This document shows, piece after piece, positions 8,979-58,936 of a DNA stretch of 64,000 bases. Below the pieces are notes generated by a model that was given only the letters and a program-made list of their open reading frames with translations, made no database searches and had not been told where the DNA came from. The translations under genes were made by a program, and so were the position numbers. Position 1 is the stretch's first letter, and the number at the start of each line of letters is the position of its first letter. Source of the stretch: Eledone cirrhosa. Taxonomy: Eukaryota. The stretch lies in the NCBI GenBank assembly GCA_964016885.1, contig OZ024743.1, positions 372,992,001 to 373,056,000 on the forward strand, written 5' to 3'.

Positions 8979-9046
<68 letters not shown>

Positions 9047-10342: not shown

Positions 10343-10417
10343 ATATATATAAATATATATGTGTGTGGTGTGTGTGTTTACGTAATACATTAGTAAAGTA
10401 TAAACATCAAGTTTAAA

Positions 10418-10528: not shown

Positions 10529-10589
10529 GCACGCACGCACACACACACACACAGACACACAGACACACAGACAGAGAGAGAGATATGAT

Positions 10590-11350: not shown

Positions 11351-11360
11351 TAGATATATT

Positions 11361-11844
11361 ATAGCCGAATTACTCGAGCCTTGCTGCGTTTCACACATTT
11401 TTTTGTAAGAAAATGATGATTGATTTTAAATCAGTGATATAATTTATGGAGAAAAACTCTGCATTTCAATATTACTCAATGTAAAATGTAATGCATGAAA
11501 AATTGGAAAACATTATTTGTAATATATTAAATCAAAATTACATTAATAAATCTTATTCTTATTTTGTTTCTTGTAAATATTTTTTTTCATAATATCAATT
11601 CAAAACTTTTGCGAATAGGCATCATATCTTGTCATTTACCTATGGTTTAAATTTCATATAAATCGAAGGGAAAACATTTTCAGCGGAGGTTTGTGCCCGC
11701 GGGGAACCCTTTGATTAAAATGAAAGTACCCTGGGCAATGTAGTTTCAGAATATATATGGTTATGGGGGTCTATCTCCAAAACCATAGGAGGAGTTCGTG
11801 AACAAACAAACAAACAGGCAGAAACTACAACTACAATATATAGA
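11361..11844 (-). mobile_element. Possible non-autonomous Helitron/Helentron-like element
   Basis: Minus strand starts A|TCTATATAT, contains (TTTG)n, and ends in a GC-rich segment followed by CTAT in place of CTAG. Confidence 0.4.
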
Positions 11845-12832
11845 TATAGTGGAGAGAACCAAGGTTTTTGAATTAAATCCATGTTTAATATCTACAATCG
11901 TTTCTATACAGATGCTTGCATATATGTACAAACAGACCAATGAAGAATCAGTTATACTTAAATAACAATTATTTACACACCTGCATATCATCAGGATTTG
12001 CTTCTCTTCACTTTAAAAATGTATTCTCCAGGGACGGTGGAACTGGGAGACCGGCGGGGGGAGGGAGGATACACGCCCCGCCCCCACCGACAATTATATT
12101 TTTCTCCCCGAACTACCAAAACACACTATGTATATGCGCTACAATTTATGTTCATGTTAGATTTATCGCATATCGAAGATTTTTATATCTTGGTTGATAA
12201 TAACAGTGTAATATATTATGTTAGCCTTCATAGTAAATCTGTCATAACTTTTTCTCCACATATCACTAATTGCCAATTGGCCCAGGCTATGTGTATGCAG
12301 AGACAGATTTCATAGGTCATTTTACTATAATCACTTTATAATTATCGGAAGCTGTAAATGTAATAAGACCTGCTTGGACTCAAATTGCATTTTCTGACCA
12401 TTTCAGAAATGCTTCCACCACCCTCACTGCCTTTAACAGCAAGAACTTTAACATTTGGAAGACTATTTCGATTGTTTAAAATTCCTTACGTACTGCAGAC
12501 TTTAAGTGTACATTGAGCTTTTCACTCATTAGAGGAATATTCCATTATAATCACTCACATATACCTATATGTGTGAGTGTGTGTGTATTCATTAAAAACG
12601 ACAACAAAAGGCCGGACTGGAAACTTTATAATTTTAATTCTGTGAAAACTATACATACTTCTTCACCCGAATATGATGCAAGACCCAGGCGATTTCGTCA
12701 GGTCTTCATTACAGAATTAGTTATTTAAGAGAACAGGATTTGGGTGAACACAAACAGAATAAAAAATAGAGGACCGATTTTGATTCGGGGATAGCTCGCC
12801 GATTTCGCGTTATTGTAACGGCAGGTCATCCC

Positions 12833-12891
<59 letters not shown>

Positions 12892-13001
12892 GCACACACA
12901 TATATATGTATTGTACTTTGCGTAGTGGGTCATACTCCCAATCAAAAACACGTGCACTGGTTGTTTTAGCACTTCAGTTTTAATAATGAACTAGCTAATT
13001 A

Positions 13002-13270
13002 GGTGGCGCGTTGGCAGAGTCTTTAGAATGCTTTGCGGTATTCGTCCCGGCTCTCTGCTTTCTGAGCTCAAATCCCGCCGAGGTTAACTTTGCCTTTCAC
13101 ACATTTAAGGTCGATAAAAAAAGTACCAGTCTAGTTCTTTGGAAGAAATCTGCTGTATTCAGACCTGGAAAGGTGATGAACTCCGCCAGGTTTTAAATTG
13201 CCCTGGAAATGCCGTATGTCAATATGGCGCCCCCACAACTACCCCAGGAGTTACGGATCCATACATACAT
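13002..13270 (+). mobile_element. Family A SINE plus tail module
   Basis: Same composite structure as 3647-3975. Confidence 0.75.
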
Positions 13271-13566
13271 GCATCTAATTGATTATAAATCCGAAGTGAA
13301 ATACAACCAGCTTGTGTTGTTATCGATTAGCAATATGACCCTCCCAAAGTACAATACATGATTTCACATCAAGGATTTTTACAAAACAAGTACGAAAGCG
13401 AAAGATAAGAGCACTCTTCAGAACTAATATCCATATATTGAGTTTTGTTTCTCCATTTGCACAGTCCAACCGATATATGTGTGTGTATTATATATATATA
13501 TATGTGTGTGTGTATGTATATATATACACACACACACATGCAAACACATGTAGGTGTGTATTTATA

Positions 13567-13640
13567 CAGATTGTCCCCCAAAATGTATACACATTTCAAC
13601 AGCATTCTAAATATATGTATACATTTTGGGAGACACCCTG
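13567..13640. mobile_element. 74-bp Tc1/mariner-type mini-MITE
   Basis: TA|cagattgtcccccaaaatgtatac ... gtatacattttgggagacaccctg|TA. Confidence 0.75.
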
Positions 13641-14399
13641 TATATAAGCATGTTCACGCGCATGTATATATTTATATATACACATATGTTTGTGTGTGTG
13701 TATGTGTGCTGGAAGGCCTTTGACCTGGGTTAGCTCTATTTCTGGGTACATTTGGCTCTAAACAATAACGACAACGACCAATGCCGGTCTTTTATTTACA
13801 AGAGATTTTACAACAGTCTCTTCCTCTCCCATCAACGCACGAATGTATTTTAGACACAGATAAATCTTAGAGCATTGTCTATGATTACTAGACTCCTACT
13901 TGTTCTCTCTAAATATGTCACTAAAAATAGATATCAAAACTGACTTCCAAACACAACTAACAATAAACAGGCTTATAGACCTGCTTGCTGCAAATAGCAG
14001 CCAAAACTGAAATCATAATGCAGCCCTTTACCATCACCATTGAAGTCCCCGGGTCTCGGTGCGTCATGACATATTTGAAATTTTAAAAATGGCAGGATGG
14101 TCCTGACTGTAATACCTTTGAACATACATGTGTTCAATTGAGATGGGCCTGTAAATGAATAAATAAAATGAAATAAAATAGAATATACAAACAACTCGAT
14201 TCTTCAAACCAACGAAAGATCATCTATGAAATGATTGCTCAATTTGCTAGAAATAGCAGCTAAATCATACTCTCATATCGGTGTATCCTAAATATATTGG
14301 GTTTGAAAGAGAAAGACTAAAGGTTTGTTTTGCTTTTAGCATAGACAACAAAATGAAAGTAAATGAAAATAAAAAGAAGTGTCCATTTTTTCAGGGAGT

Positions 14400-15479: not shown

Positions 15480-15830
15480 GTGAGGACCTTGGAAGGTAGT
15501 AGTATTGGTGCCACAACAACAAAAAAAAAGCACCCAGTTCACCCTGGGAGGTGGTATAGTGCCATGACAAAAAAGCATCCAGTCCACCATGAAAGGTGGT
15601 AGTGTTGGTGCCATAACAAAAAAAGCACCCAGTCCACTCTGTAAGATACCAGTGCAGGAGTCATAATAGAATACTCCCAGTATATGCTGTAAAGTGGCTG
15701 GCATTAGGAAAGGTATCTTACTGTAGAAACCAAGCCAAAAACAGCTTACAAGAAAGATGTTGTAATGTGACAGCCTATCTAACCCATGTAAGCATGGGAA
15801 ATAGATGCTAAATGATGATAATGGTGATGA
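15480..15830 (+). mobile_element. RTE 3'-UTR-derived short element
   Basis: aaaaaagcacccagtcca subrepeats, ggcattaggaaaggtatc, and a (TGA)n tail matching the RTE 3' UTR at 48360-48712. Further copies lie near 20540-20850, 21020-21420, 23890-24115 and 60900-61005. Confidence 0.65.
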
Positions 15831-16740
15831 TTAAAAATGTGAAAAAAAAACACTGAAAATATTTAAATTCCAGTTTAAACCATTAATTACAAGCATTTTG
15901 GCTTAGATTTTATTTCTGTTCACCAGTGAAACAAGTCAAGATGATATTGGTTAGAATATCAATCATTATAAGTTTTCTCAACAATAGTTTTATACTCTTT
16001 TCTGACAGACAAATTCAGGAAAACAGTTACATTTTTTTTAAATGTAAATTTATTAAATAGTAATTTATTTAAAACAGTGGAAACATATCTATAATTATGA
16101 AAATTCCAGGTTAACCATTTTTTTTTTTCTAAGTTAAGTGTGCCGTTTTTTGTAACTTTTTCCCTGTGATTTTATTTATGTTTCATCACCTACCAGACAT
16201 TCCTCAAACCTCCTCCTCTTTCTCACCCTTTTCCTCCTTCTGGCAAGGCTTTTGAGGGCAATGGCCTATCGAAACAACTGTTTCCAAATGATCTGGCTGG
16301 ATCCCCAAGCAAGATTATGGAGTAATTCCTGATAAAAAAAAAGTATCTTTACTTGTAAAATAAACGTTCTGTAATTTCTTATTTTGGTATTTGTATAATA
16401 ATAGACATTAGAAGTAAAATATTTGGTTTTAAAATAATAAATTCTGAAGTAATGAAGGGACTGACTGTAAATAATAAAATGAATAGAGAGCAAATATGGC
16501 AGTGCATGTAGGAGAGTCATATTTTAAGGAAGAAGGGAGAATGAACAGGATGATAAGGTTCAGGGAGCATGGACGAGAGGAGGGTGTGTTGCAGCATAGA
16601 ATTAACTCGAACATTATGAAAGAGGGATTCTATTGCAACTCATTACTTGTCCAGGCTGTCTATGATTCCCTTACCAAGCACAGCTAATTTTCACACTAGG
16701 GTCAAGAGCAAGAGACCTATTTGTTTGTTTTGTTCCAGAA

Positions 16741-31059: not shown

Positions 31060-31732
31060 TGTTTTTGTAATATTGAATGAATTTAGTGATATAATTAACT
31101 TTCTCATTATTAAGCTGGTGTTTGGAATACAACTTCAAGGTTCTTAACTAATATTAGGTTTTTAGATAAATGTAACCACTTAGGAAAAAACAGTTTTATA
31201 TCAGAGAACTAAGGACAGTCCTGTGGGTTTGGTATCAAAAATGCTAACAGAACCAAAACAGTTCCAGTATGCACCCTCTAAAACCAACTAGATCCCTCTT
31301 TTTAGAATTTCAGCCCCTTTCTTTTCTTTTGCTTCTCTTACATTCTACAAGTACCCAGTCCTGAGATCTACCTTTTCAGCCTTACCCTTTAATTTGGTGG
31401 CTCCTATTTATCTACAAGTTCATTTCCTGTGACCTTTTGAACTTTTCACTTGTCAGCAAGTTGAAATCTGTAGACATAACAAAATTCCCCTAATATATTT
31501 AAAAAGTAGTTGAGGTAGATTGTCAGTTAAAACAGTGGAACAACCATAGTTTGTAACTAACCTACTGCAACAATCATCGTCATCATCATCACTGTTTAAC
31601 GTCCATTTTCCACGCTAGCATGGGTTAGATGAGCTGTCTCATTGTGAAACAAACTAGGTCAGTGATTGTGTTTTGCTCATACAGAACTGATTTTGGCGTG
31701 GTTTCTACAGCTGGATGCCCTTCCTAACACCA

Positions 31733-33146
31733 ACCACATTTACAGTGTGTACTGAGTGCTTTTTGTTGTGACACCTACACAACCACTTTACAGTGTGGAC
31801 TGGGTGCTTTTTGTTGTGACACCTACACAAACACTTTACAGTGTGGGCTGGGTGCTTTTTGTTGTGACACCTGCACAACCACTTTACAGTGTGGGCTGGG
31901 TGCTTTTTGTTGTGACACCCACACTGCCACTTTACAGTGTGAACTGGGTGCTTTTTGTTGTGAGACCTGCACAACCACTTTACAGTTTGGGCTGGGTGCT
32001 TTTTGTTGTGAACCTACACGACCACTTTACAGTGTGGGCTGGGTGTTTTTTGTTGTGACACCTACACTGCCACTTTACAGTGTGAACTGGGTGCTTTTTG
32101 TTGTGACACCTGCACAACCACTTTACAGTGTGGGCTGGGTGCTTTTTGTTGTGAACCTACACGACCACTTTACAGTGTGGGCTGGGTGCTTTTTGTTGTG
32201 ACACCTGCACAACCACTTTACAGTGTGGGCTGGGTGCTTTTTGTTGTGAACCTACACGACCACTTTACAGTGTGGGCTGGGTGCTTTTTGTTGTGACACC
32301 TGCACAACCACTTTACAGTGTGGGCTGGGTGCGTTTTGTTGTGAACTTACATGACCACTTTACAGTGTGGGCTGGGTGCTTTTTGTTGTGACACCTACAC
32401 AACCACTTTACAGTGTGGGCTGGGTGCTTTTTGTTGCGACACCTGCACGATCACTTTACAGCGTGGGCTGGGTGTTTTTTGTTGTGACACCTACACAGCC
32501 ACTTTACAGTGTGAACTGGGTGCTTTTTGTTGTGACACCTGCACAACCACTTTACAGTGTGGGCTGGGTGCTTTTTGTTGTGAACTTACACGACCACTTT
32601 ACAGTGTGAGCTGGGTGCTTTTTGTTGTGACACCTTAACAACCACTTTACAGTGTGGGCTGGGTGCTTTTTGTTGTGACACCTACACAACCACTTTACAG
32701 TGTGGGCTGGGTGCTTTTTGTTGTGAACTTACACGACCACTTAACAGTGTGAACTGGGTGCTTTTTGTTGTGACACCTTAACGACCACTTTACTGTGTGG
32801 GCTGGGTGCTTTTTGTTGTGACACCTACACAACCACTTTACAGTGTGGGCTGGGTGCTTTTTGTTGTGACACCTGCACAACCACTTTACAGTGTGGGCTG
32901 GGTGCGTTTTGTTGTGAACTTACACGACCACTTTACAGTGTGAACTGGGTGCTTTTTGTTGTGACACCTTAACGACCACTTTACAGTGTGGGCTGGGTGC
33001 TTTTTGTTGTGAACTTACACGACCACTTTACAGTGTGGGCTGGGTGCTTTTTGTTATGATGCCATCACGACCACTTTACAGTGTGGGCTGGGTGCTTTTT
33101 GTTATGATGCCATCACGACCACTTTACAGTGTGGGCTGGGTGCTTC
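31733..33146. repeat. 44-45 bp minisatellite, about 31 copies, inside an RTE 3'-UTR-derived element
   Basis: Unit ccactttacagtgtgggctgggtgctttttgttgtgacacctacacaa, with no unique spacers. The element's (CAT)n tail is at 31574-31590. Confidence 0.95.
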
Positions 33147-36100
33147 ACATTGTAAAATTCATCATGTTTTTTGCAATATATTTTAGTGTCTCTTGAATCA
33201 TACTCTTATTTCCTTTCCTTATTACTCTCTCTCTTCTAGTATTCAATATTCTCTCTCTCCACCCTCACACCAATTCACTTTGTAATGATTTAACAGAAAA
33301 TGTCTAAAAACTTGTCTGTTAATTTAAATATTTATAGTGTTTTTACTAGTTGACAAATTGTTGTGAAAATTTACAGTATTAGAATAAAGACTTTAATTTT
33401 TAAAGTGATGCAATGATATTCCATTAACTGTTCCATTCGAGAGGCTGAGGCCATGCTGGAGCACCGCTACCAATCATAGTTTTTTTTATTTTTATCAAGA
33501 ATGTCTCTTTAATATGATTCCATGTGGTACAGGATGTTAAGAGTTCAATTATATATAAACTTTACTGATTTGTTTATGCCCCCCTCCCCCTCTCTCCCAT
33601 CTGCTATTTTTGCTATAATGTGTCATTGACATTTATGGTATGTTAGCAATGAGGATTGTTATACAAGATCAGCTTTATTGTAATCTCTCCTCTTTTCCTT
33701 CATAATGGGGGTTGTTATCATAATCAGTAATTATCCTTCTTTACATTTTTCCTATGTTGACATATCAGGAACTCTTGTCATTGGCTTATCTATTCTGATG
33801 TTAAAACAACACAAATACTACTGCAGCTATTTTTGTTTTTGTTGCACAGTAATGTCCTCTCATTTTAAGGCAAGAGTTATCCTTGCCTGCTTTTGTGTGT
33901 GTGTGGGGGGGGGGGGGGGGCAGCTTTATATTCATCATAGGCACCTTTTATGGTAATGTTTTACTGCTGGCTACTATGCTCCTCCTGGCAGAGATGGATT
34001 TAGACCGCCTCATACACAATAATTTAGTGTGAATTTTATATGTTAAGCTTTTCTTGCTGGATGCCCTTCCTATCACCAACCACTTTACAGCATGGACAGG
34101 CTGCATTCTTTATGCCACCACCGCTAGAGAGGTTGTGTGACTAGACTCAAGAGTCTTCTCCACTCTGTACCAGTTTTTATTCAGAGTGATTGCTATTCTA
34201 GACAGGCTACCCTTACTGGCTTATGGGGCCCTTGTCAACGATTTCTAGGGAGTCATCAAAGCATTTGAAAGAGTTGGTTTCATATGATCTCTTCCTGCTT
34301 ACTGTTTCTGTGTATAAAAGAGTTATTTTATCATTTCCGCTCTTCATATTTCATCCCCCTCAATTAACTTGACCTTATGTCATCTCAGTTGACCTCTCAC
34401 CACAACTTTTTGACCTCATATCAAAGTGTTTTTGCTGTCATCTACTGTTATCATGTAACAACTTTTTGCACCTAATTCACCCAACTTCACCTGTTCAGCT
34501 TAACATTTCAAAAACTAATAAACTCATACTTCTCTCCTCATCATTTAGTCTTTTCTTCCTCCTCTCTGTATAAATTAAGCCTTTTCCTCCTCCTCTCTCT
34601 ACACATTAAGCCTTTTCCACCTCCTCTCTCTATAAGAACCTTATTGTAAGTTACTGTTTTACCAAACCTGTCAAAACCAGCTCTATGAAATAAAACCACC
34701 CATTTTAAAGGTTTCTAATTTAAATTAAAATCTTCCAACATAATTTTATATAAGAACCTTATATTAAGTTACTATCTTAGTAATGGAATAATTAATAATG
34801 TTGGTAAAATCCTTCAAAATTCTTCATTAATTAATTAAAATAGTGTATTTCATTAGAGATGTGGTCATGAAAGGGTTAAGCCTTTTGTTACTATATTTCT
34901 AATGAAACACATTGTCAATATGTTTCAATTTATTTTGAAAATAATCGAAGAATTTGGTGGAATTTAGAAATATAGCTTAACTATTTCAATATTAAACTGG
35001 TGGGCCAGTTGTTCTTTAGTGTAGTGGTTAATGCAACCGAAAGATGTGGGGTTTGATTCCTTACAGATTCCTCTGTCCAGGTTTTTCCATCTCCAGAGAA
35101 ACTACCAGATTTTCACAACTATTAAGTGGTTGATTGGCAGTATCAGAGTATTGGACAAAATGCTTTGTGACATTTATTCAAATCCTTTTGAGGTCCAGCT
35201 TTGCTTTTCATCTTTCTGGATCAATAAAATAAAGTACCAGCTAAGTACTGAGGTCGACATAATTGACTTTCCCTTCCCCTCCAAATTGCTGACTTTGTGC
35301 TGGTGTCAAAGAGAATTGTTAAGCTGATGTTTGGAACATAACAATACAAAAGATTCTTACATAAAATTCCGGAAAGAGGTTTTAATGACTAGTTTAAAAC
35401 AAACAGTTTTGTATTATAATTATAAAAGAGCAGTTGTGGGTGGTTTAGTGCAGGGGTTCTCAACCTTTTTTTCGCCGTGGACCACCAAAATAAGTAATTT
35501 TTTCCTGTGGACCACCTAAACTTTAAAATCTTTTGTAATAGAACTGCTACTTATAAGCATCAGTAGATGTTTTTTTTCAATGAATTAGAAAATGCTATTA
35601 TCATGTTGCAGTGTCTAAAAATCTACGCAAACAAACAGCTGAAGTCGTACTCATGCGAAGAATAAAAACAGCGCTTTAAGTCAAATGCATGGATCAAAAA
35701 ATAATTTGCTATTGAAAATTTCCTGTGGACCACCTGAATTTTTAGTGGTCCACATGGACCAGGTTGGGCGATATCCAATTTTAGCTGCCTAAATGCCGCT
35801 TACTTGCTGCAGTTGCTGCTTACTTCAATGTATGAGGCTATTCCAACAAATTTACATTCCCCCTTTTTTTAGCCGTTAAAAGAAATATAGATTTATTTAT
35901 TTTTTTTTTTTGCGATTTATTTGCCACTGGGGCATAGATTTCTTTATTTGCCCCTTTTTTGTTTGTTTGTTTTTTTGCGATTTATTAGCCTTTTGGGGTC
36001 ACACACACCCCCGTAGAAAATGTGCTACCTTTCTGCCAGGGAGCACAGAGAGAGGGGGGTGCTCCCTTCTTCTCTTACCTGTACAAGCCGATATAGAGAG

Positions 36101-36408
36101 ATGGCCCACTTACACGGGCCATTATTGCTACTTTCACCCATCTTTCATGGAATTGGCTGGGACTGAGTGCCTTTTTCTCCACCTTGATCCTTCTTTCGAA
36201 GTGGTATCGGAAGAAGAGGACCATTTGTTGGCCGGCGACATATCCCCACAGTTTCCTCGTTGCAAACGCATCTGGGACATTTCTTTTCCAAGGGGTTTCC
36301 GTCCCGGAATCCGTGTCTGTAGAGCCTTTCCCGAACGGGCAGGGCCCCTCGGTATAATAGTAAGTATTAGTGGTTGTAATAAAAATGCAATCAAAATGTA
36401 ATAAATAC

Positions 36409-36544
36409 CTTCACTGATTTCTTTCCTTATATTATCAACAGAAGTTGGCATGTCACCCAAAGTTCGCTTTGTATGTTCCCGAATAGCAGTGAATTTTGAT
36501 AAAACTGTTTCTAATTCCTTCTCCACAGTAAGACAAATATCCAT
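36409..36544 (-). pseudogene. RMND5: Captured RMND5/GID2-like first coding exon (left arm)
   Basis: MDICLTVEKELETVLSKFTAIREHTKRTL resembles the RMND5 N-terminus (MDQCVTVERELEKVLHKF, recalled from memory). It is followed by a GAAG|GTATTT donor. Confidence 0.75.
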
Positions 36545-36717
36545 GTGTAGTCCAAAAAGATATAAATCTTTAAAAAAATTATAATAATTCTTTATTATTA
36601 TTTTCTTTTTCTGTAAATAATTATTTTTCTATATATCTCAAACCCTGCCAAACACCACATCTGTCCATCTGTAAATTTAAATGACTGTTCTTTCATACTT
36701 ATCCCCTTCAACTACAC

Positions 36718-36850
36718 ATGGATTGTCTTACTGTGGAGAAGGAATTAGAAACAGTTTTATCAAAATTCACTGCTATTCGGGAACATACAAAGCGAACTTT
36801 GGGTGACACACCAACTTCTGTTGATAATATAAGGAAAGAAATCAGTGAAG
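36718..36850 (+). pseudogene. RMND5: Captured RMND5/GID2-like first coding exon (right arm)
   Basis: MDCLTVEKELETVLSKF...KEISE, with a 3-bp deletion relative to the left copy and a donor GT at 36851. Confidence 0.75.
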
Positions 36851-36910
36851 GTATTTATTACATTTTGATTGCATTTTTATTACAACCACTAATACTTACT
36901 ATTATACCGA

Positions 36911-37362
36911 GGGGCCCTGCCCGTTCGGGAAAGGCTCTACAGACACGGATTCCGGGACGGAAACCCCTTGGAAAAGAAATGTCCCAGATGCGTTTGCAAC
37001 GAGGAAACTGTGGGGATATGTCGCCGGCCAACAAATGGTCCTCTTCTTCCGATACCACTTCGAAAGAAGGATCAAGGTGGAGAAAAAGGCACTCAGTCCC
37101 AGCCAATTCCATGAAAGATGGGTGAAAGTAGCAATAATGGCCCGTGTAAGTGGGCCATCTCTCTATATCGGCTTGTACAGGTAAGAGAAGAAGGGAGCAC
37201 CCCCCTCTCTCTGTGCTCCCTGGCAGAAAGGTAGCACATTTTCTACGGGGGTGTGTGTGACCCCAAAAGGCTAATAAATCGCAAAAAAACAAACAAACAA
37301 AAAAGGGGCAAATAAAGAAATCTATGCCCCAGTGGCAAATAAATCGCAAAAAAAAAAAATAA
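36911..37362 (+). mobile_element. Tx1/L1-clade LINE 3' fragment within the foldback arm (mirrored at ~35897-36348)
   Basis: ALPVRERLYRHGFRDGNPLEKKCPRCVCNEETV (zf-RVT-like), then FFRYHFERRIKVEKKALSPSQFHERWVKVA, aataaa and an A-rich tail. Confidence 0.7.
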
Positions 37363-38629
37363 ATAAATCTATATTTCTTTTAACGGCTAAAAAAAGGGGG
37401 AATGTAAATTTGTTGGAATAGCCTCATACATTGAAGTAAGCAGCAACTGCAGCAAGTAAGCGGCATTTAGGCAGCTAAAATTGGATATCGCCCCAGGTTC
37501 AGAACCCCCGGTTTAGTGTGAAAGGGGTTAATAACTGGGTTAACCGAGCAATTCACACAATATCAGTACTGTTTACATCTCAGAAGGATATTGTTTTGAT
37601 GGCTAATAAATAATATTGCATCATCTTCTATTTCACTTTCCTGCTGTGTTTATACACACATACACACATATGTGTGTGTATGTGTATGTGTATGTGTGTA
37701 TACATATGTATGTGTGTGTATATACATGTGTGTGTATGTATATATATACACAAACACAATGTCTCAGCTCCTCATTATGTTGTTACATTTTGACCTTTAT
37801 ATCTTTCAAAACAATTATATCAACCCTGAGTTAGTTGTATGTATTTTACAATACTAACAATGGACCTCCTATGATATAATTGTATGTACTTTAGACACAA
37901 GGCCAGCAATCTAGAATAATCTAACATTTATCACATCATTCTTTCAATATTCATCACAGCAGTTCTCCATCCTGTTTGGTTCTTATTTTATTTTGATGAT
38001 TTAGCATATATGAAATATACTAGTTTGACTTTTTTTCTTGTTAGTGTGTGTAAGTGTTGTGTGTGTAGACGTTATGTGTGTACGACATGTGTGTAATTGT
38101 TGTGTGTAAGTGTATGGGTTGTGTATGTACGACGTGTGTGTAAGTGTTGTGTGTGTACGACGTGTGCATGTAAGTGTATGTGTGGGTATGTACGACGTGT
38201 AAGTGTATGTATATGTGTGTGTATGTGTACGATATGTGTGTGTGTACGACGTTTGTGTGTGTTGTTTATTTTATATATTTGTATATGTTGGTATCACTAT
38301 ATCAGTTTACAGAGTTCACATGTATTCTACTGACTGACATTTAAACAAAGATACACAACAACAATAACGAACATAAAAACAATAAAAGTATTTCAAACCC
38401 AGTATATTTCCCAACTTTTGTTTTCTCTTTAGAATATATATTTTGTTTTATAAACACATAATAAATACAATTAATTATTGCTAGAGACCTTATAAATATA
38501 ATACACAAAAATAAATGACCAAAGCAAGAGAAAAAACAAGCAAAAACAAAAATAAAACATCAATACAACACTAAGTATGTCAATCAGTCACACATCACAA
38601 GGGTCAATGGAAATTTTTGAGGCAAGCCA

Positions 38630-42956: not shown

Positions 42957-44236
42957 TCATCATCATCATCATCATCACCGTTTTACGTCCGTTCTTCCAC
43001 GCTAGCATGGGTTAGACGGGTTGTCCTGTTGTGGGCAGTGTCTGGTCGGCTGACCATGCCTTGCTCATACAGGAACTGATCTGGCTTGATTTCTACAGCT
43101 GGATGCCCTTCCTAACACCAACCTCATTTACAGTGAGTGCTGGGTGCTTTTTCGTGGCGCCTACACGTCCACTTACAGTGTGGGCTGGGTGCTTTTTTGC
43201 CGTGGCACCTCCACGACCACCTTGCGGTGGGGGGGGGGGGGGGCATATTGTTTATATGCTTCAGCATGTACCCATGGGAAGGTCGGGTACCCTGTATTAC
43301 TGCGTGACGCCAGAAGTCACGGTCGTGTGTCATTGACTTTGAGAGGTGTAGTTGGGTAAGGTCGGCTTTTATCACCTCATCCCAAGTCATCTTGGGTCTC
43401 CCCACTCCGCGGTTTCCATCAACTTCTAGTGCTCTGCACCTTTTTATGCAGCTGTCATCCTTCATACGCATCACATGTCCATACCAGCGTAACCGCCTCT
43501 CCTGCACGCAGCATTTGATTCCTCTTATGCTCAGTCTCTCTCTCAATTCATTTATGCTTTGTCGTTCACGTATATTACTGTTACACATCCATCGGAGCAT
43601 GCAGGCTTCGTTTCTCTCTAATCTACGTAAGTCTTCCACCTTCAGCGCCCAGGTCTCACTACCATGCAACATCGCTGTTCGGATACACGCATCATACAGT
43701 CTGCCTTTCATTCTGAGGGAGAAGCCTTTTGCAGCTAGCAGTGGTAGTAGTTCCCTAAACTTCTTCCATCCCGTTCTTACCCTAGTTATTGTACTTTCTG
43801 AGCACCCACCTCCGTTGCTAATTCGGTCACCTAGGTAGCAGAAGCTGTCTACTGTTTCTACAGGGCCCTCCCAGAGATTGGTGGTACTTGTTTCCTGTGG
43901 CTGTTTGCTTGCTGTTTCAGCACAGCTGCTGCATGTGAATCCTACATTCTTAATTAAGCTTCCTGAGATCCCGCTACATCTCTTGTGTACCCATTGTTTG
44001 CATTTGGGGCAAAGAATGGAGTTCCTACCTACACCTTTCCTACATACTGAGCAAGGCCATTTCCCTGAGGGGATCTGGGTTCTGTTTTCTCGTCTACTTA
44101 TAAGGACCTTAGTCTTTGTCATGTTGACTTTGAGGCCCTTTCTCTCTAGTCCCTGCTTCCAGGTTTGGAATTTATTCTCTAGTTCTACCATAGATTCAGC
44201 TATGAGTGCGAGGTCATCAGCATACAGGAGTTCCCA
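42957..44236 (-). mobile_element. 5'-truncated RTE LINE, open reading frame from the YADD motif onward
   Basis: [14 protein letters not shown]-type finger, [24 protein letters not shown], 3' UTR and (TGA)n tail. Inserted in (TA)n. Confidence 0.95.
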
Positions 44237-45782
<1,546 letters not shown>

Positions 45783-46617: not shown

Positions 46618-46704
46618 TATGTATAAGGCAATCAAGGATATGTGTGTATATATATATATATATAAGGCAATCAAGGATATATATGTATATATATATATAT
46701 ATAT

Positions 46705-48357
46705 ATGTATAAGGCAATCAAGGATATGAAGACTGGTAAGGCGGCTGGGCCTTCGGAAATAGTTGCTGAGATGCTGAAGGCATCTGGCACGGTGGGACAC
46801 ACCATGGTCACCCGCATAGTTAACCAAGTCGTACAGAATGGGGTTGTTCCGAAGGACTGGCATAGCAGCATCATCGTTAACTGTTATAAGGGTAAAGGAG
46901 ACGCCCTAGATAGGAGTAACTATAGAGGCATTAAATTAATCGACCAGGTCATGAAGGTCACGGAAAAAGTAATAGCGCAACTAATCAGAGAGAGAATTGA
47001 TCTAGATGAAATGCAGTTCGGGTTTGTGTCAGGCAAAAGCACCACAGACGCTCTTTTCATAGTACGACAACTACAGGAGAAGTACCTAGCTAAAGGTAAA
47101 CCCCTCTACTTAGCTTTTGTCGACCTGGAGAAAGCCTTCGACAGAGTCCCCCGCTCCATTATCTGGTGGGCTCTTAGAAAACTAGGCGTTGACGAATGGC
47201 TTGTGAGGGCTATACAAGCCATGTATAAAGAAACAGTCAGCAAGGTTAGAATTAACAACGAATATAGTGAAGAGTTTAGCGTAAAAGTTGGCGTCCATCA
47301 GGGCTCTGTTCTCAGCCCCCTACTATTTATTATTGCCCTTCAGGCTATAACAGAGGAGTTCAAGACAGGCTGCCCATGGGAACTCCTATACGCAGACGAC
47401 CTGACACTCATAGCGGAATCAATGGCCGAGCTAGAGAAGAAATTCCAAACATGGAAGCACGGCCTAGAGTCAAAAGGACTTAAAATTAACCTGGCTAAGA
47501 CCAAAGTTCTAGTTTGTAGGAAAGAAAACAAGGCGGCGGTCCCTTCTGGGAAATGGTCGTGCTCGGTATGTAGGAAAGGCGTAGGTAGAAACTCCATCTT
47601 ATGTCCTAAATGCAAAGTATGGGTGCATAAAAGATGTAGTGGGATCACAGGTAAGCTAACTAAGAACATAGACTTTACATGTGGCCGGTGTTCTGGTGCA
47701 ATAAGTAGCAGCAAGTGCCCACAAAATACTAGCTCTTTCAATTGCGCAGAGGGTTTTATAGAAATAGTGGACAGCTTCCGTTACCTGGGCGATAAAATCA
47801 GCAGTGGGGGAGGGTGCTCTGAAAGTACTGTAGCTAGAGTCAGAACTGGTTGGAAAAAGTTCAGAGAGCTTATACCACTATTAGCTGCTAAAGGGTTCTC
47901 CCTAAAAATGAAAGGCAGGTTGTACGATGCCTGCATACGAACAGCAATGTTGCATGGTAGTGAGACCTGGGCATTGTGTGCAGAGGATATACGCAGACTA
48001 GAGAGGAACGAAGCTTGCATGCTCCGCTGGATGTGTAACAGTAATATACGTGAACGGCAAAGCATAAACGAACTAAGGAAAAAATTAGAGATAAGAGGGA
48101 TCAGATGTTGTTTACTCGAGAGAAGGCTGCGTTGGTATGGACACGTGATGCGCATGAAAGTCGATAGCTGTATTACAAAGTGCAGGGCAATAAAGATAGA
48201 CGGTAGCCACGGAATAGGCAGACCTAGAAAAACATGGGATGAGCTGATAAACTCCGACCTCACACACTTACACCTCTCCAAGACAATGTCACTGGACCGT
48301 GACCTTTGGCGGTACTCAGTAACAGAGAAGACCCGCCTTGCCAGTAGGCATCTCTAA
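46705..48357 (+). CDS. RTE-clade reverse transcriptase ORF (5'-truncated, uninterrupted 550 codons)
   Basis: [76 protein letters not shown]. There is no endonuclease, and the start M comes from the TA tract. Confidence 0.9.
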
Positions 48358-48713
48358 CAAAATACACCCCTCCCGCCGCCACCCCCACCCCATCCACACC
48401 ACCCCGTTCTATGTAAAGTTATGTTGGTGCCGCGCCATCCAGGCCGAAACAAATGAGATCGTGTAGGTGTCACGACAAAAAAACACACAGTCCACGCTGT
48501 AATGTGGCCGTGTAGGCAACACGGTAAAAACCTCCCAGACCCACACTGTAAATGTGGTTGGTGTTAGGAAGGGCATCCAACTGTAGAAAACCTGCCAGAC
48601 AGTCCTATGCGAGCAAGACAATCACTCTTGCCTCAAGTGGGACTACCCCCGTCCAAACCCATGCAAGCGTGGAACACGGACGTTAAACGTTGATGATGAT
48701 GATGATGATGATG
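46707..48713 (+). mobile_element. 5'-truncated RTE LINE
   Basis: RT ORF, a ~350 bp 3' UTR and a ggacgttaaacgt(tga)n tail, flanked by (TA)n. Confidence 0.95.
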
Positions 48714-50277: not shown

Positions 50278-53200
50278 TCAGGATTTGGGCACCATGGCCC
50301 ATTCGAGAAGAGAATTACTGTTTGCGGAGACATATCCGGGTGTGGGTGGTTTGTCCGGGATTACTTGGAGGAATTTGTCCAAAGACTTCTTGAATTTTGT
50401 GTGGTCAGTTTCTGTTTTGACGTGTCCTGGTGTGATGTTGAAGAGAGCAGGGCCGATTGAGGTGAAATAATTGTGCCGTATTGTTGTTATGAGTTGCGAT
50501 TTAGATTTTTGAATGGGACGGATAGCACGGGGCCCAAGCCTTGGGTGTATCTTGAAGGCGATGCCAACATCATTTGGGCAGTGATGATGGAACATTTTCC
50601 ACATCATGCAGATAATATAACGCTCACGGCGACGTTGGAGTGAGTAAAGTTTCAGGTTTTCCAATCGACCCCAGTAGTCAAGGTCTGACATGCCATCTAT
50701 CTTTTTCGTGATTGCCCTTTGAGGAGCTTCAAGTTTCATGATACTTTGTTTCGTGTGGGGAGACCACAGTGGACAACAGTATTCAAGGTGTGGTCGGGCG
50801 AAAGTAGAGAAGAGAAGGATAATGGTGCGGGAATCTCTCGACTGGAAGGTTCTGAGGATCCAGGAACACATTCTGCGGGCCATGTCAACTTTGCTGCTTA
50901 TATGCGTGGTCCAGCTTATGTTGCTGTCCACGGTTACTCCCAAGTCTCTGATGTTGTTAGATGCCACGAGAGTTTCCCCGGAGGGAAGGGAGTACGGGAG
51001 TTTCAGAGCATCCTCTTTTCCAAAGTGGATCAGTTCGAATTTGTCTTCGTTCAGTAACATGTTGTTCTTTTCTGCCCATTGGGTAACAGCCAGTAGGTCT
51101 GACTGAAGGCTTATCCGGTCATCCACGCCATTGATGACCTTTTGGAGCTTGGAATCATCAGCGAAAATTTTAATGTTGCTGTGTTTGATGATGTCAGTGA
51201 TGTCATTAATATAGATGATGAAGAGAAGTGGGCCCAACACAGTGCCTTGTGGGACTCCACTACTGACTTTGGCTGGGCTTGATTTGACTCCCTCAACTAC
51301 AACATGTTGGGTTCTGTTTGACAGGAAGCTCTTGATCCACTGCAGCAGCTTTCCAGTGACACCAATATTGGACAGCTTTCTGAGTAGAATGTTATGATCA
51401 ACCCTGTCAAAGGCCTTGCTGAAATCAAGGTAGATAACATCAGTGTTGGAACCCTCTCCCAAGGCTCTCAAAATGTCATCAAAGTGATGCAGTAGTTGCG
51501 TCAGGCAATCCCTTCCATTACGGAATCCATGCTGGTTGGAGTTTAGCATATTGTTACTCTCAAGGAAGTGGGTCATTCGCGATCTCACCACTCGCTCAAA
51601 TACCTTAATGATATGAGAGGTGAGTGAGATTGGACGGTAATTCACGGCAAGGGATTTGTTTCCCTTTTTGAAAACTGGGACAACAGACTGGGATAGAAGG
51701 TTTTCTGGCACATATCCAGCATCCAGTGAGTTCCGCCACAGATTGGCAAGAGGAGAAGCAAGTTGGTGTTGACACGCCTTCAAGACACAAGCAGGGAACC
51801 TATCGGGACCTACTGCTGAATTATGCTTGATTTCCTTTATTGCCGCCAAGACATCAGGGGCGCCAAACGTTATGTCCGATAAGGTGTAATGGGGAGTAAC
51901 ATCGCCGATACAGCCCAGATCGGCCATATCAGGATTGCTGAAAACAGAGCAGTATTGTTTCTGCAGTATCTCACCCATGGTTTTAGCATTGTCTTGAAGA
52001 GTGCCATTTTCATCAATTAGAGGGCCAACAGTAGAGCCAGTGATTTTGTGTTTTTTTGCAAATGAAAAGAACACTTTGGGATTGAGTTTGATCTTCTCAA
52101 TGGCCCAGGCCTCTTCAGCTCTTCTCTGATTGTTGATGAGGGACATTATGTTGTTTTGGAGGTTATGTTTTTTAATCTCTAGTGATGAAATGGCAGTCAA
52201 GTTGATGTGTTGCTGCTGACAGTATTTCAGCTTGTTGATTTTTTTGTTCGTTCTCTTAATTTTTCTGATGAGTGTTTTTCTATTTCTAGGGATTCTGCTC
52301 TTAGATTTGTTTATAGTTCTTAATGGGGTGTGTTTAGCACATATGTTTGTAACAGTGTCCACAAATGTCTGCCAGGACTTTTTGATGTTAGTGGGTGTAT
52401 GAGTGTGCGTGAAGGACCAGTCGACATGTGCAAGATCATGACTGATCGCTTCCCAGTTTGCATTGTGGAAATCCATAGCGTCAAACGGATGGACAGGAGA
52501 AATGACATTGGGTTTGTATATTGGACGGTGGAATCTCAGATCACAGAGAACCATGTCATGATCAGAGAGTAGAGTTTTCTCCACTGCAATATTGTGGATA
52601 TTGTCAGTGTGATTGCTGAAAATTAAGTCTAGGACGTTTTTGTGGCACCTCGTTGGTTCGAGAACTAGTTGGGATAGGAAGAAATCATCCATGAAGTCAA
52701 GAAGCGATTCCACAGCTTCCCTGTCAGAGGTTGAGGCAGAAGAACCTGGTGGCAGGGTGTTTGTGGACCAGTCAACTCCGGGGAGGTTGAAGTCCCCCAT
52801 CATTAAGATGTTGTCAGGGTGACACTCTTGGATGAAACACTTTATGCTGTTGAGGCATTCCTTGAAGCATGGTACAGGCGTTTGGGGTGGCCTATAGAGC
52901 CCAACTACTAATAGGTTGTTGGTTTGACTGAATACAGTGACTGCCTCACAGTATCCATTAGTGAATATGTTCATAGCCTCTGTTGAGAAAGAATTATGGA
53001 CATAAATGGCAGTTCCGCCCTTTCTTCTGCCAGCGCGATCAGCACGGATGGCTTTGAAATTTTTCACTTTCACCTCGGCTTCCAAGTGGAGGTTACTGAG
53101 ATGGGTTTCAGTGAGGACGAAGAAAGGGATGTGGTTTGGATGGACATCAATCCAGTCCTCCAGGAATTTGATCTTCCATTTTTGAGTATTGGTGGAAGGG

Positions 53201-53298
53201 CTGATGCCTTGGGCGTTAAGCAAAAATGTAGAGGCGAGAGTGGATGGTTTTAATTGTTTTGGTGTGTTGTTAATTTGTTTGTTTGTTAATGGCAGCAA
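50278..53298 (-). CDS. LINE ORF2: apurinic-like endonuclease + reverse transcriptase (no AUG at start; frame open from ~53415)
   Basis: LLNAQG, LTETHL, GGTAIYV, YRPP, MGDFNLP, LDLIF, SDH; [55 protein letters not shown]. Confidence 0.95.
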
Positions 53299-54443
53299 TG
53301 GGAGTTTGTGCAGTGGGGTGATAGTGGAGGGTGGTGCTGGGTGATAGCTCGAATGTTTTTTTCCAGTTCTTTTGCCAGATTCATTATGGCTAAAAAAGAG
53401 GAAGAAGTTTCCTGTTTAGAAGACTGTTGGTGACTGTGGTAGTGGTTATTTTTATGTAGGTTATGGTTTTTGTTTTTGCTTTTATTTTTAATTTTATTTT
53501 CATTTATCCGACGGGTCCCCGGGAGATGGGTAAAGGGACAATCCCGGTCTAAACACAATCTGTCTCGCAGGGAAAAACGGCAGATTTGTGGATTCCTTGT
53601 TTGAGTTATTGGTGGTTGTGTTGGTGTTAAATTAGAGTATGTATTATGGTGGTGGCTGTTTGTGGGGATAGATCGTTTTGTCCTAGGTAAATGGGTGAAT
53701 TTGCAGCCACTATCCGTACATATTCTATAGCGTAGAGAGTAGCGGCAAATGATGGGGTTTCGAGTGGGTGGGTATGTGGGTGTGGGTGTTGTGAGAGGTG
53801 TAGATGATGGTTTGGGTAGGATTTGACGACCTTTGTGGACTGTGGGAGGGAGAGTTCTTGTTCTGGTATTAGAAGGTAAATTCCTTGACATAGCAGTAGA
53901 CAAAAATGTTGTAGTAGTAGTAGTAGTAGTAGGCAGAGATGTTGGCAGTGGTGATGATTGGACTGCTGGGCCAGAGAAAGGATGTGGCGTTTCATGCTGT
54001 GAGACAGAGGCTACTGGGGGGTCAATAGTTTCATTTAGTAGATCGGCCATTGTTGATGAATCAAGGAGTGGTTCACACTGTTGTTGTCGTTGTTGTTGTT
54101 GTTGTTGCTGTTGTTGTTGTTGTAGCTGTTGTTGTTGTTGTTGTTGTTGCTGTTGTAGCTGCTGTTGTTGTTGTTGCTGCTGCTGGACAGCATTCGAAGA
54201 GAAAACACACCGTAGTTTATCCAAATGTTTATTGATTAATTTAAAAGCAATTTCGATTTGCTTTAATTTATTTTGAATCTGTTGTTCAGATCGAGTTTTC
54301 AAAAATTGAACTGTACGTTTAGCAATGTCGTTCAGAGATGAAGCATCTATATTTTCTGTTTGGGAAAGGCAATGCCATGTGTTTATTAGAATGTCGATTT
54401 CATTATCAGACCAGTTCTGTTTGGATTTTTGCTGGTTAGCCAT
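53286..54443 (-). CDS. LINE ORF1: Myb/SANT-like domain, polyQ, Pro/Thr-rich linker, two CCCH zinc fingers
   Basis: ATG-initiated 385 aa. Contains WSDNEIDILINTW...RSEQQIQNKLKQI and two C-x8-C-x4-C-x3-H motifs. Confidence 0.85.
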   Translation of the reverse strand: MANQQKSKQNWSDNEIDILINTWHCLSQTENIDASSLNDIAKRTVQFLKTRSEQQIQNKLKQIEIAFKLINKHLDKLRCVFSSNAVQQQQQQQQQLQQQQQQQQQQLQQQQQQQQQQQRQQQCEPLLDSSTMADLLNETIDPPVASVSQHETPHPFSGPAVQSSPLPTSLPTTTTTTTTFLSTAMSRNLPSNTRTRTLPPTVHKGRQILPKPSSTPLTTPTPTYPPTRNPIICRYSLRYRICTDSGCKFTHLPRTKRSIPTNSHHHNTYSNLTPTQPPITQTRNPQICRFSLRDRLCLDRDCPFTHLPGTRRINENKIKNKSKNKNHNLHKNNHYHSHQQSSKQETSSSFLAIMNLAKELEKNIRAITQHHPPLSPHCTNSHCCH

Positions 54444-55014
54444 TCTAGTTTTGAGTGTGTGTGTGTTTTAGTTAAGTATTTCAATATATATATATATTTT
54501 TTTTTTTAAATTTATTTTTGATTTATTTTTGTTTTTTGTTTTTCTTGTGTGTGAGTGAGAAGCGTATATATATAAATATGAGTATATATATATATATATA
54601 TGTATATTCTGGTTATTTGAAATTAATTAAGTTAATGAAAAGACGAAAGTATATAATAATAATTTGTAGTTAAAGGAAAATGTACTCACAAGTTCGTGTG
54701 TGTGTGTTTTAGTTAAGTATTTCAATATATATATATTTTTTTAAATTTATTTTTGATTTATTTTTGTTTTTTGTTTTTCTTGTGTGTGAGTGAGAAGCGT
54801 ATATATATAAATATGAGTATATATATATATATATATATATGTATATTCTGGTTATTTGAAATTAATTAAGTTAATGAAAAGACGAAAGTATATAATAATA
54901 ATTTGTAGTTAAAGGAAAATGTACTCACAAGTTCGAAAACACGTGGTTTCAAATATATAATAATATAGATGTATGAAAAATGTATTAACCGGTCAATTTT
55001 CAAATATATAATGA

Positions 55015-57829: not shown

Positions 57830-58455
57830 ACCAGTACTGCATTGGTACTTTCTTTGTAAACCCCAAAAGAGTGAAAGGCAAAGTGGTTTGTGGGCTGCAC
57901 ATGTGTGACACTTGCATTGGGTTGATAAAATAAAGTACCAATGAAATACTGGGATGTGATTTAACCAACTTTTCATTCCCCCAAACATTGCCGGCCTTGT
58001 ACCAGTGTTAGAAACCATTATTTTAAGCGTGATGGAATTGGCAGAATCATTAGAGCATTGGATAGAATGTTTTACAATATTTGTTCTGATACTCTGAATT
58101 CTCAATTCAAATCTTGCTGAAGTCAACTTCCGAGATTGATAAAATAATGTACTAGTCAAATACTGGGATCAGTATGGATCAATTTGTTCCCATCCTCCTC
58201 CAAATTAATGGCCTTGTGCCTAAATTTGAAATCGGTAGAGTGTCAGATGATATTCTTTGTGACATTTGTGCCAATTTTATATAGAATTATTTTGTTGTTG
58301 TTACGTTCTGAGTTCAAATCCCACCAAGGTCAACTTTGTCCTTCATCCTTACAGGGTTGATAAAATAAAGTACCAGTAATGCACTGGGGTCGATTTAATT
58401 GACTTTCCCCTTCCCCCAAAATGGTTGGCCTTGTGCCTAAATCAGAAACCATTAT
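57830..58455. mobile_element. Cluster of decayed family A SINEs
   Basis: Repeated gataaaataaagtacca and ggccttgtgcctaaa motifs. Confidence 0.7.
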
Positions 58456-58518
58456 TATTATCATGCCATTTTATATTATATTATTTTGGTTCTTTTTTTT
58501 TCTTTTCTGTATTCTCAG

Positions 58519-58817
58519 TGATGTATGGAATGAATGGATTTAGTGATGACAACAATGAGTATGTCATGGTCCAAGTGACCCCTTTACCAAGTGGTGAAGT
58601 GACCCCTCTTCAGAGTTACAATAACACTCCATTGACCAGTGCAAATGCTACACCATTACCTAACAAGAAGTGGCCATGTTCCAATGACTCGGACACCGGC
58701 ACGGATATTTTACCGATATGCAGGATTTGTCATCTTCCAGGGGATAAAGAAGACAGTTTGTTCAAACCTTGCCGCTGCTCTGGAACATTGAGGTTTATAC
58801 ACAATGGATGTCTCATG
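58519..58817 (+). CDS. Exon of a RING-CH (RINGv) E3 ubiquitin ligase, MARCH family
   Basis: Acceptor ttttctgtattctcag|, ATG at 58521, [35 protein letters not shown], donor |gtaaat. I did not find the exon with the last CxxC pair in the window. Confidence 0.9.
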
Positions 58818-58936
58818 GTAAATCATTCTTTTTTTTTTTCTGCTTGTTTTCCCAAGGAAAACCTGTATGAAATTTGTAATCGATAAAACTAACAAAATTT
58901 ATATCATTTTATACAGTTGATATACTCTCTCTCTCT

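Follow-up and report, generated by a model that had tools for sequence, protein, structure and literature searches.

A palindromic transposon-like element carrying an RMND5 exon and a LINE 3' end in both arms: a probable multicopy gene-capturing family in an animal

The window analysed here, a stretch of 64,000 nucleotides, contains a palindromic element of 1726 nt (35767–37492), each end of which reads GGCGATATCC inward. Inverted-repeat alignment defines a left arm of 785 nt (35767–36551, minus strand) and a right arm of 782 nt (36711–37492, plus strand) that are 99.4% identical across a 785-nt alignment, the differences being two adjacent substitutions (36449 and 36450) and three nucleotides missing from the right arm. 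Between the arms lies a spacer of 159 nt (36552–36710), the loop of the hairpin. The element is flanked by an 8-bp duplication (35759–35766 and 37493–37500) with seven of eight letters identical, a match of at least 7/8 being expected by chance at a fixed offset with p = 2e-4; this duplication length is read from one locus only, with one mismatch. Such a mismatch is slightly odd for so young a copy. The element splits a host MITE (35451–37510) into a left part belonging to a high-copy family (35451–35766) and a right remnant (37493–37510). The MITE has its own perfect 8-bp target-site duplication (35443–35450 and 37511–37518), and its 5' end predicts the G present in the left copy of the element's duplication; we take it to be of hAT type from its 8-bp duplication and its CAG..-type end sequence. 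The initial annotation had described a 1726-bp element with near-perfect inverted arms of ~785 bp, an 8-bp duplication with one mismatch and an insertion in the right end of a hAT MITE, and these descriptions all hold.

Contigs and reads from sequencing runs X1, X4, X5 and X10 (four of the 12 listed) were compared with the left half of the locus (35340–36722). X1 is possibly the sample used for the assembly itself, and X4 behaves like an RNA run, although its kind is not on record.

Each arm harbours a captured first coding exon of RMND5. The left-arm copy (36409–36544, minus strand) consists of 45 codons plus one base followed by a GT donor, and the right-arm copy (36718–36850, plus strand) lacks codon 3. 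The peptide from the window matches residues 1–42 of human RMND5A with an E-value of 0.041, the sole match up to E 10; parent-type protein P0010, which shares 38 of 45 residues with it, matches human RMND5A at E 8.5e-4. Six of the seven residues at which P0010 differs are those computed from single-letter variants in diverged X4 and X5 records. These parent-type records, together with P0010, show that the cargo has a separate parent copy. One of them, an X4 record of 1435 nt at a depth of 99.5, has seven differences in 129 nt, and its match to the window stops precisely at 36409, the donor; it is likely to be an mRNA contig, showing this donor in use. A second contig also leaves at 36409. Homology to RMND5 thus begins at Met1 and ends at a used splice donor, in agreement with the original claim of an RMND5-like ATG exon with its donor in both arms. 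All seven differences between arm and parent alter amino acids and look like decay.

On its upstream side the exon is joined by likely 5' UTR (36662–36717, plus strand), the start of which is placed by X4 depth: a parent record from organism B matches 36401–36546, followed by 46 nt in the right-hand part of the spacer. Beyond the donor lies an AT-rich segment of 54 nt (36355–36408, minus strand), in which agreement with parent-type records is limited to the first 8 nt. The intron start reported earlier is therefore borne out by the GT donor and these eight bases, but not beyond them; the remainder showed no resemblance to the intron of P0010, which may not be the host's own, and 435 of 500 shuffles scored as well. 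Pfam gave merely two sub-threshold matches for the exon peptide and none for four other reading frames of the element, and a comparison of the peptide with longer proteins yielded seven candidates, none of which scored. Matches in the ESM Atlas were all low-recognition bacterial look-alikes and were rejected, and a designed TIM barrel, the second PDB match of P0010 (E 0.005), was taken as a match of helical composition.

The 3' end of an L1/Tx1-type LINE accounts for about half of each arm and was overlooked in the initial annotation. In the left arm (35955–36354, minus strand, left boundary approximate) it comprises an ORF2 C-terminus, a stop and a short 3' UTR, with the ORF2 portion reduced by an internal deletion to the start of the zf-RVT domain and the last ~50 amino acids. 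In the right arm (36905–37304, plus strand, right boundary approximate) the ORF stop ends at 37184 and an AATAAA lies at 37273. The identification is based on a match to P0003 (E 2e-9), the zf-RVT domain and tblastn matches in two frames; a full-length cluster mate carries endonuclease, reverse transcriptase and zf-RVT. The clade is presumably Tx1. Two A-rich units of 41 nt, 65 nt apart and each with an AATAAA (35892–35997, minus strand), are likely LINE tail(s) or a subterminal repeat. P0006, one of seven matches in the LINE protein search, is an odorant-receptor repeat and was dropped as spurious, and 45 longer-protein candidates for the LINE frame gave no scored match.

Depth in X1 separates the element from its surroundings. 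A depth of 9.45 for the contig with the exact left junction (0 differences) contrasts with 440–610 in the spacer, 799 in the exon contig and 712 and 849 in contigs of the arm that lie within the LINE piece. Because the arms reach 75–90 times and the spacer 47–65 times the junction depth, the interior is multicopy and this flank is not. Contig depth is not equal to true copy number, and on this measure about 25–65 copies of the element are suggested, which would be a minority of a more numerous family sharing its ends. The terminal segment (35767–35900) of that family has a depth of 6,500–14,300 at the listed sites, and three other flanks, two X4 loose ends and an X1 joint (36059 to 35767), meet the terminus; they are flanks of terminus-family members, which may lack RMND5. 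The possibility that the termini were single-copy, raised in the initial annotation, does not agree with these data. Setting the boundary one base wider, with a GGG end, would give a perfect 6-bp duplication; this is disfavoured by the absence of the extra G in two of the three other flanks, which join precisely at 35767, the third having it. A further set of 83 X10 loose ends at 35777 was rejected as insertion flanks, given that molecule ends of that library sit at AATT sites.

At 36020 and 36026 the two arms agree on letters that are opposed by the X1 contigs (11,852 of 11,852 and 11,450 of 11,677 depth respectively), and because of these letters, common to both arms but not to the contigs, we infer that the sequence of one arm replaced that of its partner. 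The mismatch at 36449/36450 represents one private change per arm; CpG decay was rejected as its cause, the family letters being T and A. There is precedent for arm extension in Galileo, in which internal sequence is recruited into the TIRs (PMC3573991), and TIR-to-TIR conversion has been proposed for maize Mu (PMC10401008).

The element was previously described as Pack-Merlin-like, with a Mutator-type origin allowed for. Merlin transposons have GGNRM termini and duplications of 8–9 bp; a literature search for the GGNRM label returned no transposon paper carrying it. The 5'-GG ends fit Merlin/IS1016, as would the 8-bp duplication read at this one locus (PMC8101967). No transposase was found among the 183 filtered ORFs of the window outside the element, and the sequence is compatible with Merlin but would also suit Mutator. 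The 5'-GG termini are not specific to Merlin, as MULE ends are also G/C-rich, and long TIRs starting with G/C-rich bases are a Mutator/MULE trait seen here. TIRs of Merlin/IS1016 span 24–462 bp, compared with an arm of 785 nt in this element, although the shared terminus alone (about 135) falls inside that range (PMC8101967); for arthropod MULEs the TIRs are given as 13–1193 bp, with G/C ends (PMC13359780).

Taken together, we favour, at a probability of roughly 80%, a non-autonomous cut-and-paste DNA transposon whose arms each carry an RMND5 exon and a LINE tail, and which a transposase encoded elsewhere has helped to multiply to tens of copies. Its multicopy state, TIR-type ends, 8-bp insertion signature and the RMND5 exon in both arms make the earlier proposal of a mobile, gene-capturing element likely. 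In the history that we infer, the first three steps of which may have come in another order, a member of the large same-ended family would have acquired the 5' end of RMND5. This piece comprises the coding exon with about 56 nt of 5' UTR before it and at least 8 bases of intron after it, and its most likely source is genomic DNA, by gap repair or template switching. The deleted 3' end of an L1/Tx1-type LINE would then have come between this piece and the terminus. Intra-element conversion may subsequently have written one arm over the other; the presumed end of the tract, 7 nt upstream of the ATG, would explain why the remaining UTR is found only in the spacer. The composite would finally have been amplified, with one copy entering the end of the hAT MITE at this locus. 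We consider the cargo most likely to be a passenger in decay.

A reading without transposition, in which the palindrome is a local inverted duplication, a foldback artefact of assembly or a tandem or segmental amplification of RMND5, draws on the absence of a second complete copy among the contigs and reads compared, and of any listed contig covering the entire left half. Opposite-strand joints at the palindrome centre are nevertheless present in X1 contigs (depth 610), in X4 contigs (67) and in raw X10 reads (10 and 9 reads, with two start places each), and short-read data from three samples of organism A (S1, S2 and S8) contain the centre joint, which argues against the assembly artefact that the initial annotation had allowed for. 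The centre is also found in X5 contigs, which we do not count as proof of the family in a second species. Together with the private differences of the arms, a left junction at single depth against an interior at 47–90 times that value and the split host MITE with its 8-bp duplication, this makes the reading highly improbable. A more serious competitor concerns how the cargo was acquired. Capture from DNA, as first suggested, is likely, with the eight intron bases common to parent-type records pointing to an unspliced template; it is not forced, however, since the exon and the 3' end of the LINE are joined in sense orientation. The cargo could instead have entered as RNA, by reverse transcription of a Tx1-type LINE from its own 3' end with jumps, a switch to RMND5 pre-mRNA within intron 1 and continuation into the 5' UTR, after which the chimera would have inserted into a TIR element, to be mirrored and amplified there. 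The exon and the LINE piece are co-oriented, the latter terminates in AATAAA and an A-rich tail, depth bookkeeping places the start of the host piece seemingly inside the transcribed 5' UTR, and the parent record of organism B has no LINE joint in about 107 nt past the end of its match. Template-switch chimeras of cellular RNA and L1 have been described, as has Tx1 insertion into a non-autonomous DNA transposon (PMC4494074). On the other hand, no duplication is visible by eye around the exon-plus-LINE unit and about 46 nt of unexplained sequence separates the eight intron bases from the LINE piece. An X4 joint from 35908 to 36354 (depth 16, side 23 nt), which may be spurious, hints in addition at a form without the LINE piece, and the LINE would therefore be a later arrival. 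On balance we regard entry as RNA as possible but rather unlikely.

With the cargo in both arms, any read-through RNA would be a long hairpin with perfect windows of 21–30 nt to a housekeeping mRNA and long LINE homology. The predicted fold of the centre, computed over 661 nt, is an almost uninterrupted stem (-465 kcal/mol, z -46), and the complete hairpin would measure ~780 bp. The earlier description of ~780 bp of dsRNA homologous to the RMND5 mRNA does not stand, as only about 151 of 785 bases of the stem (~19%) are RMND5-like, some 150 bp, while the LINE 3' end contributes about 51%, or ~400 bp. The palindrome could be kept by selection if such RNA gave rise to small RNAs against the RMND5 mRNA, the LINE or both, or served as an ADAR substrate important to the host. 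Besides the predicted stem, this would fit the stretches of 30, 22 and 21 nt that still match the parent-type exon perfectly (with the seventh difference placed by deduction) and the presence in X4 of element-type exon, LINE-deletion and spacer contigs at a depth of 23–32, against 99.5 for the parent record. The same depth could come, however, from background DNA or intronic RNA of tens of near-identical copies; the X4/X1 ratio is 0.02–0.05 for terminus and cargo alike, and the parent record is abundant in X4. That every arm-to-parent difference changes an amino acid fits neutral decay. As for editing by ADAR, no A-to-I clusters were visible in X4 contigs, in which rare variants are dropped: contigs 13, 15 and 16 have 0–1 differences, and the two X4-only changes of contig 12 (36175 and 36199) recur in X10 DNA reads (1/6 and 3/6). 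Selection on the hairpin is improbable in our view. We would give similarly little credence to the most far-reaching version, a first Pack-Merlin and an animal gene-capturing family of tens of copies, each a ready hairpin against the 5' end of the mRNA for RMND5, a core ubiquitin-ligase component, and the LINE 3' end, that would act as a self-spreading small-RNA or editing substrate tying host-gene dosage to retrotransposon control, with some copies providing novel spliced transcripts with a functional ATG exon.

Given the preferred reading of an amplified DNA transposon, a young family with tens of copies would mean that plant-style capture and amplification occurs in an animal. Thanks to the hairpin cargo, it could be asked directly in a natural system whether parent genes are regulated by captured fragments in animals, and the nested order of terminus, LINE end, exon and UTR in the loop documents the way in which arms grow longer. 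Should the cargo be inert, as its decay suggests, the element is a good example of TE architecture and not new biology.

Among known systems, the best-ranked matches of a literature search, mainly of non-subscription papers, included no paper dealing with this element, with the capture of RMND5 or with a Pack-Merlin. TIR gene capture in animals is documented mostly as single, immobile copies, and tens of copies would be unusual. The survey of Tan et al. (2021; PMC8277862) reports 370 Pack-TIRs in 100 animals, only four of them multicopy (the example shown has three copies), and explains multicopy cases by template switching followed by transposition. They are mostly hAT and Tc1/mariner, with no animal Pack-MULE; within its 12 supplement files the sole occurrence of 'Merlin' is a column head in the TE-count table, and neither Merlin nor Mutator has a listed case by text search.

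In plants, Pack-MULEs, including tandem-TIR forms (PMC3310237), and long-TIR Mu homomorphs (PMC10401008) likewise combine gene-fragment cargo, long TIRs and multicopy families, with TIR symmetry restored by a proposed conversion as inferred here; their gene fragment lies between the TIRs, whereas here it is part of both, and the host is an animal. Galileo and other foldback elements also have non-autonomous copies with TIRs of >1 kb built from internal sequence recruited into both arms, but Galileo belongs to the P superfamily and recruits its own DNA rather than a host exon and a LINE end (PMC3573991). L1/Tx1 template-switch chimeras similarly join a piece of cellular RNA 5' of a LINE 3' end; unlike these, the unit described here lies inside DNA-transposon ends, is mirrored and has no duplication of its own that we could see (PMC4494074). 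The closest counterparts are animal Pack-TIRs, non-autonomous TIR elements with host non-TE sequence (Tan et al., 2021; PMC8277862), as seen here in the TIRs at both ends, the 7/8 target-site duplication, the repeated-family ends with other flanks and the host-gene cargo with a parent copy. They differ in that depth here suggests tens of copies and that the cargo lies in both arms instead of between them; the element is a variant of the animal Pack-TIR, new in its probable high copy number and in the placement of its cargo.

The palindrome at 35767-37492 is a real, young gene-capturing foldback element that is multicopy by contig depth. An alignment of its arms, 35767-36551 (- strand) and 36711-37492 (+), extends over 785 nt and shows two neighbouring substitutions plus a 3-nt gap, and a repeat search of the window gave an ungapped core of 771 nt; the near-perfect arms of about 785 bp described in the initial annotation were therefore confirmed. 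Its 8-bp duplication with one mismatch also held, as seven of the eight flanking letters are equal (chance about 2e-4) and every other length from 2 to 12 gives at most three equal letters. The element lies, as proposed, inside a MITE (35451-37510), which it interrupts and which is itself flanked by a perfect 8-bp duplication. The mismatched letter is G in the left copy and C in the right; given that the MITE 5' end predicts G, a single later substitution accounts for it. Shifting the boundary one base outward produces a perfect 6-bp duplication, but this is less favoured because two of three other flanks at the terminus join at 35767 without the extra G (the third joins at 35766).

Four of 12 listed sequencing runs were compared with the left half of the element only (35340-36722): X1, X4 and X10 from organism A and X5 from organism B. 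The exact MITE-element junction was present in X1 as a 109-nt contig with no differences at a depth of 9.45. Depths in the interior were 799 for the exon contig, 849 and 712 for two LINE-piece contigs, 440 for the spacer contig and 610 for the centre joint; ratios to the junction contig were 75-90 for the arms and 47-65 for the spacer. This corresponds to about 25-65 elements in a haploid genome, according to whether one chromosome or both carry the insertion, noting that contig depth is not equivalent to copy number and that X1 is possibly the same sample as the assembly. A foldback artefact or misassembled inversion, considered at the outset as a source of the palindrome, is very unlikely because the centre joint recurs in X4, a different sample, and in raw reads of X10, a different study (the 3-nt gap form in 10 reads and the form without it in nine; two start places each). 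Nor are the termini single-copy: other flanks join the terminus, and summed depth at listed sites of the terminal ~135 nt, which overcounts, is 6,500-14,300, so that arms with RMND5 probably make up the smaller part of a wider family that shares these termini. An X1 joint of 36059 to 35767 (depth 13.9) places a family terminus in LINE 3' UTR sequence, either in another copy or in a free LINE.

The left-arm exon (36544-36409, -; 36718-36850, + in the right arm) codes for a 45-residue peptide running from ATG to a GT donor. Up to E 10 its sole match in the PDB was human RMND5A (E 0.041, aligned over residues 1-42 of each), and a search among proteins of near length returned one candidate, P0010, which is identical at 38 of 45 residues, matches RMND5A at E 8.5e-4 and continues into the apparent intron; the RMND5 identity is thus upheld. 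A 1435-nt X4 record (depth 99.5) differs from the window at 7 of 129 letters and departs from it exactly at donor 36409, behaving as spliced parent mRNA would, and it is mainly for this reason that we treat X4 as an RNA run. Six listed X4 variants encode K13, L21, Q26, A28, I32 and A33, all found in P0010; the seventh P0010 difference from the element peptide is K40. Each of the seven element-parent differences alters the encoded residue, and one parent-type residue is that of the human protein, a pattern that fits neutral decay of the exon within the element. A 510-nt X5 record has five parent-type variants in common, together with the family letter at 36449, and matches 36401-36546 followed by 46 nt of the right-hand spacer; the parent's upstream sequence therefore persists in the right-hand part of the loop. 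X4 depth bookkeeping agrees with a parent-shared stretch from 36662 onward, likely 5' UTR. Of the exon, donor and intron start originally described, the first two stand, but agreement of the intron with parent-type records is limited to 8 letters; past these, the arm shows no likeness to the P0010 intron, its score being equalled or exceeded by 435 of 500 shuffles; that intron is perhaps one of another species.

The stem had been regarded as RMND5-homologous throughout, yet only about 19% is RMND5 and about 51% is a LINE 3' end that had been overlooked. Frame 36894-37181 matched seven proteins at E up to 0.001, six of them alike; the seventh was dropped as an odorant-receptor repeat. The best match, P0003 (E 2e-9), has a zf-RVT domain; another member of its cluster, P0013, combines endonuclease, RT and zf-RVT. 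By tblastn in two frames, each arm aligns with P0003 residues 203-233 and 308-356, the ~75 residues between these being absent. In the right arm the stop at 37184 precedes a short UTR; AATAAA (37273) with an A-rich tract comes next and recurs 65 nt further on. Loose ends of a high-copy LINE family depart at 36354 and 36251. We presume that the piece belongs to the Tx1 clade. Possible arm variants without all or part of the LINE piece were seen as an X4 joint of 35908 to 36354 (its short side is 23 nt and it may be spurious) and an X1 joint of 35904 to 36051.

In X5, four element-type contigs within 35864-36710 have 4 of 653 letters differing from the window, and depth is zero over the terminal 90 nt. 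The four listed X5 sites consistent with these contigs are all ones where the window also departs from the X1 majority, so they look like the organism A consensus, at about single-copy depth; parent records differ from the window at 14 of 146 letters in organism B and 7 of 129 in organism A. These contigs could be trace DNA of organism A, or recent transfer or introgression.

The data establish the anatomy, the identity of the parent, the contrast between a high-depth interior and a flank of single depth, and the joining of other flanks to this terminus. A member of the larger same-terminus family probably took up the RMND5 piece and gained a LINE end; one arm would have been copied over the other, with a copy tract stopping 7 nt upstream of the ATG, and the composite amplified in trans. 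Letters at 36020 and 36026 are common to both arms and absent or nearly so from X1 contigs, and 36449 and 36450 each represent a change private to one arm; arm-to-arm conversion followed by drift fits these sites, with the proviso that contig simplification could mask a subfamily. In the text available, Galileo is described as having drawn internal sequence into both of its TIRs (PMC3573991), and for maize Mu conversion from TIR to TIR has been put forward (PMC10401008). How the cargo was captured is less certain. Capture from DNA offers the simplest route; a switch of template by a LINE onto RMND5 pre-mRNA is less likely, though the orientation and tail of the cargo agree with it and analogous chimeras are on record (PMC4494074, in the portion available).

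The palindrome centre is predicted to fold as a near-perfect stem, and windows of 30, 22 and 21 nt still match the parent-type exon perfectly. Element-type contigs in X4 have depths of 23-32, with X4/X1 ratios of 0.02-0.05 across terminus and cargo versus 0.001-0.016 for MITE and LINE bins; these values are compatible with transcription and also with background copies. No A-to-I editing cluster was found in X4 contigs on the arm, and two X4-only arm changes were not taken as editing because X10 DNA reads carry both. Two X4 records leave donor 36409 with differing sequence (agreement 0.53), one being the parent; the other is unlike the parent's next exon and might be an infrequent chimeric splice or another exon of the parent gene used as an alternative. 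For the element-type exon, depth bookkeeping gave ~31-33 for the unspliced path and 0-2 for any other, and a rare chimeric splice from the captured donor is possible. The closest exon of a host gene that could be recognised, of RING-variant type, lies 21 kb away. Any regulatory role of the hairpin is putative, and the cargo looks decayed.

That exon-like ORF (58380-58886, +; RING-variant domain start, E 4e-10) is probably of a MARCH-type E3 ligase. The window also contains an apparently intact two-ORF LINE (50281-54467, -) with a 1045-aa endonuclease and RT ORF and a 393-aa upstream ORF; and two RT ORFs in opposite orientation, ~75% identical (46666-48354, +; about 43275-44237, -), one with a PHD-like finger and both bordered by long TA-rich arrays. 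Three consecutive ORFs (6721-8867, -) had no Pfam match at E 0.001, and by their motifs we take them to be a frameshifted Penelope-type element. Tandem repeats with a period of about 48 nt (31731-33145) are akin to pieces at 15490-15832, 42959-43233 and 48461-48709.

No transposase was found among 183 of 219 filtered window ORFs, the 36 excluded being ORFs of the element itself, ORFs overlapping LINE ORFs in an opposite or shifted frame, or parts of a tandem repeat. Merlin is the leading candidate superfamily (probability about 0.55), Mutator is a weaker candidate and any other origin is improbable. In the text available, Merlin elements bear 5'-GG termini, duplications of 8-9 bp and TIRs of 24-462 bp (PMC8101967), while arthropod MULEs end in G/C and their TIRs reach 1193 bp (PMC13359780). 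By its repeats the window resembles an octopus genome. If it is one, both superfamilies are present in its group (PMC13282606, PMC8101967).

All Pack-TIR features checkable here are present, and the element works like a Pack-TIR or Pack-MULE. In the portion available, Tan et al. (2021) report 370 animal Pack-TIRs, four of them multicopy, mostly hAT and Tc1/mariner with zero Pack-MULE; Merlin appears solely as a table heading and the words 'octopus' and 'mollus' are absent from that main text (PMC8277862). A literature search that covered few subscription papers and no repeat database found no counterpart with such copy number and mirrored cargo. Plant multiple-TIR elements, in the part of the source available, carry cargo between their TIRs (PMC3310237), whereas here it lies within both arms; it is copy number and mirrored cargo that distinguish the element from the published cases found.
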